A stretch of DNA of 6,699 nucleotides from a virus (taxonomy: Duplodnaviria; Heunggongvirae; Uroviricota; Caudoviricetes), in IMG/VR virus record IMGVR_UViG_2671180417_000006, positions 1-6,699 of that record. The stretch is one strand, 5' to 3'. The position numbers were made by a program, and so were the translations under genes. The notes under the pieces are model-generated. The model did not search any database, was not told where the DNA came from, and saw nothing but the letters and a program-made list of their open reading frames with translations. Shown one piece after another: positions 5,486-6,699 of this stretch; positions within the stretch are counted from its first letter, which is position 1; every line of letters begins with the position of its first letter.

Positions 5486-6699
5486 ATGGCAGTAAAGATT
5501 TCAGGTGTACTGAAAGACGGCACAGGAAAACCGGTAGAGAACTGCACCATTCAACTGAAAGCCAGACGGACCAGCAGCACGGTGGTGGTGAACACGGTGG
5601 CCTCTGAAAATCCGGATGAAGCCGGTCGTTACAGCATGGACGTTGAGTACGGTCAGTACAGCGTCATTCTGTTGGTGGAGGGCTTCCCGCCGTCACATGC
5701 CGGGACCATCACCGTGTATGAAGATTCTCAACCGGGGACGCTGAATGATTTTCTCGGTGCCATGTCGGAGGATGACGTCCGGCCGGAGGCACTGCGTCGT
5801 TTTGAACTGATGGTGGAAGAAGCGGCGCGTCACGCTGAGGAGGCGAAGAAGAATGCCGGAGAGGCGGAGACGTCCGCGAGGAATGCCGGCATATCAGCCA
5901 GTCAGGCAGAAGAGAGCGCTGCACATGCTGACACTTCAGCAGGGGATGCATCGGAGTCAGCCCGGCAGGCGGCAGAAAGTGCAGCCGCTGCAAAGCAGTC
6001 AGAGGAGGCGTCCTCGTCCTCGGCCTCTGCGGCCGCTCAAAAAGCCAGTGAGTCATCACAAAGTGCAGCAGAAGCTGAATTGTCAAGAAAGACGGCAGAA
6101 AGTGCAGCCGGTAATGCAGCCAGGGATGCAACGACCGCAGCAGAAAAAGCCCGGGAGTCAGCAGAAAGCGCACAGTCAGCGGAACAAAGCAGGATAGCGG
6201 CGGAAGAGGCCGTAAACCGAATCCCCACCGTGGTGGGGCCTCCCGGGCCAAAGGGGGAACCGGGGCCCGCGGGTCCTCAGGGGCCGAAGGGTGATAAGGG
6301 AGAGCGCGGTGACACCGGCCCTGTCGGGGCAACCGGCGAACGGGGACCGGCAGGTGATGCTGGTCCGGCAGGCCCGCAGGGGCCGAAAGGCGACAGGGGA
6401 GAGCAGGGAAAGACCGGTCTGACGGGAGATGCAGGTCCACAGGGTCCAAAGGGAGATACCGGTGCGGCAGGCCCGGCAGGCCCACAGGGACCGAAAGGAG
6501 AAACAGGTGCGGCTGGCCCGGTGGGGGCTACCGGACCTCAGGGACCAAAGGGCGACCCGGGGGAGACGCAAATACGGTTCCGTATGGGGCCGGGAAACAT
6601 TATTGAGACAAACAGCAATGGCTGGTTCCCGGATACAGATGGCGCACTCATCACCGGACTGACCTTTCTTGACCCCAAAGATGCCACACGGGTTCAGGG
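5486..6699 (+). CDS. stf: Side tail fibre protein Stf, N-terminal part (continues beyond the window end) with a collagen-like repeat
   Basis: ATG at 5486 with GGGGTGA upstream. By my own translation the frame (positions congruent to 2 mod 3) has no stop to the window end, so it is absent from the ORF track. [97 protein letters not shown]... is near-identical to the lambda Stf N-terminus as recalled. It is followed by an Ala/Ser/Glu-rich low-complexity segment and then Gly-X-Y repeats. Confidence 0.85.
6236..6567 (+). repeat. Collagen-like Gly-X-Y triplet repeat region within stf (about 37 uninterrupted triplets)
   Basis: Translation [110 protein letters not shown]. The motif PQGPKG(D/E) recurs five times, with the CAG codon at 6278, 6377, 6440, 6485 and 6539, encoded by varied synonymous codons. 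Confidence 0.85.

Follow-up and report, generated by a model that had tools for sequence, protein, structure and literature searches.

The side tail fibre gene (stf) at the end of 6,699 nucleotides (nt) of DNA from a tailed virus (Caudoviricetes; IMG/VR record IMGVR_UViG_2671180417_000006, positions 1 to 6,699), referred to here as the window, encodes a collagen-like tract of 37 Gly-X-Y triplets. The tract is very probably the collagen segment of the shaft of an EPclA-type fibre from a lambda-like, CP-933K/Sp3-like prophage of an enterohaemorrhagic-type Escherichia coli, and its length very probably varies between alleles through misalignment of a repeated motif. The collagen stalk of EPclA-type side tail fibres is a known feature whose family was characterised biochemically in 2012, and the window protein is an ordinary member of that family. 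A map of the deletion junctions is added here as a small extension of that work; everything else was published in 2012. The anatomy of the protein, its family, the length polymorphism and the junctions were all observed directly.

The tract is a single uninterrupted run of 111 amino acids (aa) and scores 65.7 bits against the Pfam Collagen profile (PF01391; cut-off 27.2, E = 3e-18). An earlier reading made without database searches, called here the sequence-only reading, had placed about 37 uninterrupted triplets at 6236-6567; both the translation and PF01391 bear this out, and the true end is at 6568, 1 nt further. The frame is intact throughout, and the break within the tract that the same reading had named as a possible objection is absent. 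The fivefold PQGPKG(D/E) motif that it described, with spacings of 33, 21, 15 and 18 codons, is exact: the copies begin at aa 264, 297, 318, 333 and 351 (nt 6275, 6374, 6437, 6482 and 6536). At 6236 the tract begins with one more copy, the degenerate sixth, GPPGPKGE. Its remark that the motif is encoded by diverged synonymous codons was also correct. When the six copies are compared in pairs over 24 nt they are 67-83% identical and agree at 0-4 of their 8 wobble sites. Exact stretches common to two copies reach 6-12 nt and never more than 12. The G+C content of the tract is 71% versus 56% for the window.

The EPclA name and the PfN, PCoil, Col and PfC architecture come from Ghosh et al. (2012; PMC3368898), who give as examples ECs2717, ECs2941/H0004 of VT1-Sakai and Z0982 of CP-933K. 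The VT1-Sakai phage corresponds to the Sakai Stx1 prophage, and its stf is entered as EPclA in Table 2 of that paper. The common EPclA allele has 437 aa with a PCoil of 116 and a Col of 111, and there are about eight copies per O157:H7 genome (PMC3368898). The window protein has the PfN domain, a PCoil of ~116 aa, a single 111-aa Col and PfC, follows J and lom as EPclA does, shares the GP(Q/P)-GPK-G(D/E) triplet pattern that Ghosh et al. saw repeatedly (PMC3368898), and is identical to VT1-Sakai H0004 at 390 of 404 aa (97%) without gaps. It is unlike EPclA in point differences only. For example, the window allele has GEQ-GKT and GDA (6290-6310, 6389-6412) where the Sakai protein and nearly all relatives have GER-GET and GNA.

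What is known of the trimer, the triple helix and the stalk length is taken from the literature. Recombinant EPclA is a trimer that falls apart on denaturation, and its Col-PfC fragment has the circular dichroism spectrum of collagen and melts cooperatively with a melting temperature of 42 C (PMC3368898). The PCoil part forms a trimeric coiled coil with a melting point of ~52 C, and the PfC part is a trimerisation module from which the helix is renucleated. In rotary-shadowing electron microscopy the protein is a dumbbell with a hinged stalk and a Col of ~30 nm. According to Ghosh et al., Pro at X and charged residues account for the unusual stability of the helix (PMC3368898). By analogy with this 97% identical protein, the trimeric collagen-type stalk proposed in the sequence-only reading is well founded, and the tract is expected to form a triple-helical rod of ~32 nm (111 x 0.29 nm). 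The same paper reports EPclA Col lengths that vary by multiples of three (63, 78, 81, 111, 114 and 144 aa) and mentions in general terms that recombination between prophages causes domain shuffling (PMC3368898). It gives the lengths with no junction map and no proposal of cassettes, and the terms slippage, deletion and duplication are absent from it (PMC3368898).

The comparison of tract lengths drew on 120 cluster representatives (90% clusters) from a search of a 5.8-billion-protein collection and, for DNA, on 80 IMG/VR loci, nine loci found by exact protein look-up and further loci from complete genomes. Tracts were located in the loci by translation-based anchoring; fixed flanking DNA anchors lost half of the loci. 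The homologues span 4-38 triplets among the 120 representatives and 30-38 triplets across the 80 IMG/VR loci, so the identical repeat number in all homologues that could have spoken against the sequence-only reading is not what is seen. The commonest allele by far is that of 37 triplets (69 of the 93 tracts with DNA, in a sample biased to full-length query matches). Nearly all short alleles fit the 37-triplet allele minus one internal block with 0-1 aa mismatches, and the fitted deletions always remove 3 aa or a multiple of it. The range over which a junction is ambiguous is mostly a repeated peptide, for example GPVGATG. With the motif copies numbered 0 to 5, pairing 0-5 gives 4 triplets, 1-5 gives 8, 1-4 gives 14, 0-3 gives 15-16, 2-4 gives 25 and 3-4 gives 32, while two distinct 19-triplet alleles come from pairings 1-3 and 2-5 and two distinct 26-triplet alleles from pairings 1-2 and 3-5. 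Almost all pairings of motif copies are thus represented, and the relatives form a motif-bounded deletion series.

Can such a series arise by chance? As the null, every in-register deletion that the window tract allows was taken, at the protein level. In 8 of 20 distinct deletion classes the junction holds a peptide of 7 aa or more that is repeated exactly, versus 5.3% expected (binomial P = 4.5e-6), and the P value is even smaller when each distinct product is weighted once. Longer repeats also lie at junctions: a 65-nt imperfect repeat pair around motif copies 1 and 2 is the junction of the 33-aa deletions in homologues P0059 and P0009. Gain or loss of the 9-nt unit CGGCAGGCC accompanies the smallest changes, with one, two and three copies corresponding to the 36-, 37- and 38-triplet alleles. 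Most deletions seen in DNA map to the 37-triplet parent with 0-1 nt mismatches. Because the 24-nt windows in which the crossovers fall are mostly 71-83% identical yet share an exact microhomology of just 2-11 nt, classical homologous exchange would fit the pattern less well than replication slippage or recombination over short homology. The suggestion in the sequence-only reading that the tract is a substrate for slippage or recombination that could change fibre length is supported by the spread of lengths and by these junctions.

Three chains would be joined on both sides of the tract, N-terminally by the PCoil coiled coil and C-terminally by the trimerisation knob PfC, with PfC nucleating the folding of (Gly-X-Y)37 into the rod. 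At the tail the fibre would be anchored by PfN in a collar like that of Ur-lambda, PCoil and Col would make up the shaft, and PfC would be the distal tip, presumably host-binding. The GP(Q/P)-GPK-G(D/E) unit may serve as a stabilising module for a triple helix that is free of hydroxyproline. From the collagen-peptide literature we infer that Pro at X, together with Lys at Y followed by Asp or Glu at the next X, could provide interchain salt bridges. In the DNA the six motif copies and the GPA and GPV-GAT repeats are short imperfect direct repeats, whose misalignment would drop or add whole blocks of triplets while the Gly register is preserved. The event is most likely replication slippage or short-homology recombination, within the gene or among the ~9-10 paralogues per genome, and its outcome would be the alleles of 4-38 triplets seen here and of 48 in the literature.

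Several points weigh against this account. The triple-helix evidence comes from recombinant Sakai EPclA and not from this allele, and the window tract differs from the Sakai protein at four tract residues. When conditioned on deletion length the DNA-level junction test is weak (the fraction of the null at least equal to the observed value is 0.0-0.8 per event, mostly 0.05-0.3), and its power is low because deletion length itself encodes the motif spacing. A single deletion from the 37-triplet parent does not explain the 27-triplet tract of locus L091 (3 mismatches), for which two events or a parent of 38 triplets are needed. The deletion series comes partly from draft assemblies and 90% cluster representatives, and the 8- and 4-triplet alleles have no single-piece match among the matches listed in 5,426 complete E. 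coli genomes. Finally, the randomised wobble positions do not discriminate between duplication and convergence as the origin of the motif copies. The motif units could instead have arisen by convergent selection for helix stability, with the length variants being random in-register indels that were selected. Wobble matches among the six copies are indeed no better than chance, and the motif also recurs in a sea anemone collagen and in viral collagens that are unrelated (PMC3368898). However, this explanation is unlikely, as any in-register deletion keeps Gly-X-Y and yet the junctions cluster in repeated peptides, and the Shigella EPclD-type 9-triplet allele independently joins the first and last motif copies. 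Homology also reaches past the motif (72% in the 65-nt pair and 84% in a 45-nt x2 tandem duplication), and because of this the old duplications put forward in the sequence-only reading are plausible as the source of the motif copies. They are not proven, given the randomised wobble positions, and convergent selection may instead have produced the motif. The length polymorphism could also be mostly an artefact of assembly, with short reads collapsing a GC-rich repeat that has ~10 paralogues per genome. Many short alleles do lie on 1-10 kb draft contigs, and the sources of the 8- and 4-triplet EPclA alleles are drafts and one metagenome only. The matches listed for these two queries are two-piece alignments spanning 27-38-triplet alleles; those listed for a 19-triplet query (L083) are likewise two-piece, though 19-triplet alleles exist on complete chromosomes. 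The 8- and 4-triplet EPclA alleles are unconfirmed and may be rare or artefactual. For the polymorphism as a whole an artefact is improbable, since alleles of 19, 21, 27, 32, 36 and 38 triplets are found in complete chromosomes or phage genomes. Alleles of 19 triplets stand at two places in CP062727.1 and at one on a 5.29-Mb contig (exact protein look-up), that of 27 in O157:H7 strain 493/89, that of 32 in EC20017429, that of 21 in phage YYZ-2008 and that of 38 in several Stx phages (span of 623 versus 614 nt). Shigella boydii EPclD-type fibres with 9 triplets lie on 4.6-Mb contigs, and the Sanger-finished genomes in Ghosh et al. carry Cols of 63, 78, 81, 114 and 144 aa (PMC3368898). Collapse by an assembler is an unlikely cause of short alleles because the motif copies share at most 12 identical bases, which is below assembler k-mers. 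For the 8- and 4-triplet alleles too, a microhomology of 11 nt or less would hardly suffice for such a collapse.

Two further explanations concern what the DNA encodes. A role for the protein as an adhesin or host-mimicking surface protein of the bacterium, like streptococcal Scl or Bacillus BclA, and not as a phage fibre, would agree with the roles that collagen-like proteins play in Gram-positive pathogens and with a weak match of the BclA collagen region, and the question was left open by Ghosh et al. (PMC3368898). It is very improbable here. The gene stands in the tail module after J and lom, neither a signal peptide nor an anchor is found in the stf sequence when read directly, and the PHROG matches of the fibre protein are exclusively to tail fibre families. 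The N-terminus is the lambda Stf collar domain, which is tail-bound in cryo-electron microscopy (PMC12617516). It is scarcely credible that the antisense open reading frame (ORF) at 5709-6485 or the Arg-rich ORFs are real overlapping genes. The longest antisense stretch without a stop (272 codons) does fall at about the 98th percentile for that frame in 1,000 synonymous shuffles of stf, being reached in 1.8% of them, but that frame is one of five tested, and correction for this removes the significance. Across the alternative frames the shuffles have a mean longest stop-free stretch of 67-211 codons, with mean runs of 130-210 codons in three other frames, and the Pro/Leu/Arg composition is what antisense GCN, GAR, GGN and CCN codons produce. 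No opposite-strand coding sequence lies over stf in the annotated records examined. The antisense ORF was rejected as a gene on the synonymous shuffles, and the antisense and alternate-frame ORFs are compositional by-products. The sequence-only reading was right about their kind. Its attribution of them to the collagen repeats was loose, as only 250 of the 777 nt of 5709-6485 lie over the tract, the remainder being opposite PCoil, and all of the ORF at 5853-6197 lies over the PCoil region.

Frame changes were also seen in relatives of the window gene. These frameshifts are isolated (loci L075, L064 and L077), and no recurrent hotspot was found among the relatives, which gives no evidence for phase variation. 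In L075 an additional G in a GGGGG run at the Col-PfC border (~6557-6562 in the window) cuts the protein to 373 aa. A truncation of this type fits the defective copies named 'EPclA*' by Ghosh et al. (PMC3368898).

Why would a fibre gene keep copies of a motif that are identical in the protein and scrambled at synonymous sites? Because of this arrangement the EPclA motif copies might allow occasional in-register changes without hyper-instability. One tentative and rather doubtful idea is that they are built-in cassette boundaries for block deletion, duplication or module swap, from which we infer graded lengths (4-48 triplets, ~3-42 nm) that could be tuned to the surface layer of the host, such as O-antigen or capsule. 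The swaps in the examined data include podovirus EPclB and Shigella EPclD fibres.

The features of the window are collected in the table below. PfN, Collagen and PfC are the only Pfam domains of the stf protein. Residues 1-93 match the N-terminal collar domain of Ur-lambda gpStf (PDB 9E7M/9MGH, E = 2e-51). PCoil has the length given for EPclA in Table 2 of PMC3368898 and is poor in Leu, Ile and Val, its composition having been read directly. The PfC inside the window covers profile positions 1-42 of 64 of PF06820, where the end of the window cuts it; the domain is complete in locus L001, which is 99.1% identical. PCoil also shows a series of in-frame deletions, with 28, 41 and 63 aa missing at aa ~159-221 in homologues P0002, P0020 and P0021. 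The deletions of 28 and 63 aa are multiples of seven and that of 41 aa is not; PCoil length differences in multiples of seven have been reported by Ghosh et al. (PMC3368898). PCoil holds 36-nt imperfect direct repeats (family D1).

Table. Features of the window, with positions counted from its first nucleotide.
Feature	Position	Strand	Remarks
C40-peptidase/K-like gene	19-447		ORF listing
Tail assembly I-like gene	345-1025		ORF listing
J tail-tip gene	1218-4751		ORF listing
lom	4822-5421		ORF listing
stf, EPclA-type side tail fibre gene	5486-6699	+	open frame from ATG; directly after J and lom
PfN domain, tail attachment (aa 1-133)	5486-5884	+	PF08400, E = 5e-69
PCoil, Ala/Ser/Glu-rich low-complexity (aa 134-250)	5885-6235	+	composition read from sequence
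Collagen (Gly-X-Y)37 tract (aa 251-361)	6236-6568	+	translation; PF01391
PfC domain start (aa 363-404), trimerisation and presumed receptor-binding knob	6572-6699	+	PF06820, E = 7e-18
Motif copy 0, GPPGPKGE	6236-6259	+	left junction of 4-, 15- and 16-triplet alleles
Motif copy 1, GPQGPKGD	6272-6295	+	left junction of 8-, 14-, 19- and 26-triplet alleles
Motif copy 2, GPQGPKGD	6371-6394	+	junction of 19-, 25-, 26- and 30-triplet alleles
Motif copy 3, GPQGPKGD	6434-6457	+	junction of 19-, 26-, 30- and 32-triplet alleles
Motif copy 4, GPQGPKGE	6479-6502	+	right junction of 14-, 25- and 32-triplet alleles
Motif copy 5, GPQGPKGD	6533-6556	+	right junction of 4-, 8-, 19- and 26-triplet alleles
65-nt imperfect direct repeat pair (6254-6318 and 6353-6417), around motif copies 1 and 2	6254-6417	+	72% identity, 99 nt apart
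45-nt x2 imperfect tandem duplication, spans motif copies 3 and 4	6431-6521	+	84% match; loss of one unit gives 32-triplet alleles L073 and L092
Perfect 9-nt tandem repeat CGGCAGGCC x2.1, encodes GPA-GPA	6465-6483	+	TRF
Antisense stop-free ORF, 258 aa, Pro/Leu/Arg-rich	5709-6485	-	19% Pro, 17% Leu; not a gene
Arg-rich ORF in the +2 frame	5853-6197	+	wholly upstream of the tract
ORF overlapping the tract	6176-6571	-
Alternate-frame ORF, 77 aa, by-product	6429-6662	+	21% Arg; overlaps the tract

By ORF listing and translation the gene order in the window is K-I-J-lom-stf, the distal tail module of a lambdoid prophage. The stf frame is open from its ATG at 5486 to the end of the window (404 codons), which cuts it at aa 404 of 437 and leaves the last 33 codons outside. 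Among the 5,426 complete E. coli genomes the closest match to the window locus is in strain Z1323HEC0393 (99.1% nt identity), where the counterpart of stf encodes a 437-aa 'prophage tail fiber N-terminal domain-containing protein'. None of these genomes is more than 99.1% identical, therefore the exact window allele is absent from the collections searched. The Z1323HEC0393 prophage adjoins ybhB-bioA and carries after stf an 89-aa PfC-domain gene and then EspS, DUF1076 and NleG effector genes.

A strong hairpin resembling an intrinsic terminator lies between lom and stf at 5448-5469 (8 pairs, 7 of them G-C, then TTTTTGT), and the hairpin with its T run (5448-5479) ends just 7 nt upstream of the stf ATG. 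No sigma-70-like promoter was found across 5300-6699 of the window. In L001 the 89-aa gene (9316-9585) directly follows stf, with one base from the stf stop to its start, and the arrangement of stf and an 89-aa PfC-domain gene is repeated in loci L082-L098. This gene occupies the position of lambda tfa. Its product has another full PfC domain at residues 28-89 (PF06820, E = 5e-36; phrog_576 'tail fiber protein') and could act as a chaperone, as an alternative tip or as a capping subunit. All related prophages that were examined (L001, 9726-12382; L082-L095) have type III effector genes directly behind the stf/PfC pair, including EspS, NleG, DUF1076, NleB/SseK-like, TccP and the peptidase M85/M91 families. 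The site after this pair is the usual effector cargo site in the lambdoid prophages of enterohaemorrhagic E. coli.

The collagen-PfC family is found in ~712 of the 5,426 complete E. coli genomes, at a median of 9-10 places in each and at up to 13. For the PfN part, the first ~350 nt of stf, matches exist in 4,655 of the 5,426, K-12 stfR included. For annotation the practical value is that the gene can be correctly named as a collagen side tail fibre of the EPclA type and not as a novel element. Prophages with EPclA fibres carry Shiga toxin and type III effector genes, and determinants of host range in the fibre therefore affect the spread of virulence genes. That the allele lengths form a motif-bounded deletion series, with exact microhomology of just 2-11 nt at the junctions, is a modest addition; it turns fibre length into a variable that adsorption studies or fibre engineering could readily test.

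The Col and PfC module of the window fibre is shared with the podovirus fibre EPclB. Among the short-tailed Stx2 phages of 933W type (PA28, TL-2011c and others), some 155 finished genomes align with the window at ~96% nt identity and only from ~nt 6250 on. Because this homology begins within the first few triplets, the start of the tract is also a mosaic boundary between siphovirus and podovirus fibres. The EPclB homology starts near motif copy 1. EPclB of 933W, PA28 and TL-2011c (645 aa) is like the window protein in its second Col and PfC, with ~96% DNA identity from the first GPK-GDK onward. In the PA28 protein (L097, 2501-2949) the second Col becomes identical to the window tract and continues so through PfC. 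EPclB also has a PfN and a PCoil of 109 aa (PMC3368898). The two proteins are unlike in that PA28 EPclB has Col runs of 32+20 and 38 triplets, whereas the window protein has one Col. YaeT/BamA has been proposed as the receptor of EPclB, a proposal cited in PMC3368898. Since the Col and PfC module has ~96% DNA identity with the distal half of EPclB, YaeT/BamA is by analogy a candidate receptor for the side fibre of the window prophage. The EPclD-type fibres of Shigella and E. coli resemble the window protein at the other end, in PfN-PCoil and the first 6-22 triplets, and share with it a motif-bounded deletion series of 9-38 triplets. They differ in the distal triplets and in the C-terminus (TELLTTAN..., a peptidase S74/intramolecular chaperone domain, PF13884).

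Ur-lambda Stf has a homologous N-terminal collar domain, the same locus after J-lom and the form of a trimeric accessory fibre. In the Ur-lambda virion twelve copies of gpStfN make up the tail collar, from which four trimeric side fibres emerge (PMC12617516). The shaft and tip of lambda Stf resemble T4 gp37 and bind OmpC (PMC12617516). In contrast, the shaft of the window fibre would be coiled coil and collagen and its tip PfC, and the next gene encodes the 89-aa PfC-domain protein; a gp37-like distal shaft and tip (Phage_fiber_2 repeats) and a downstream Tfa gene were absent by Pfam from the window protein and the L001 locus. The window fibre is thus a Stf homologue at its N-terminus and by locus only.

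Outside the phages, Scl1 and Scl2 of Streptococcus pyogenes and BclA of Bacillus anthracis also have Gly-X-Y helices free of hydroxyproline that are nucleated by a globular trimerisation domain. The number of repeats in Scl and BclA is well known to differ among strains. Unlike the window fibre, these are proteins of the cell surface or the exosporium, and their X and Y positions are Thr-rich with less Pro at X.

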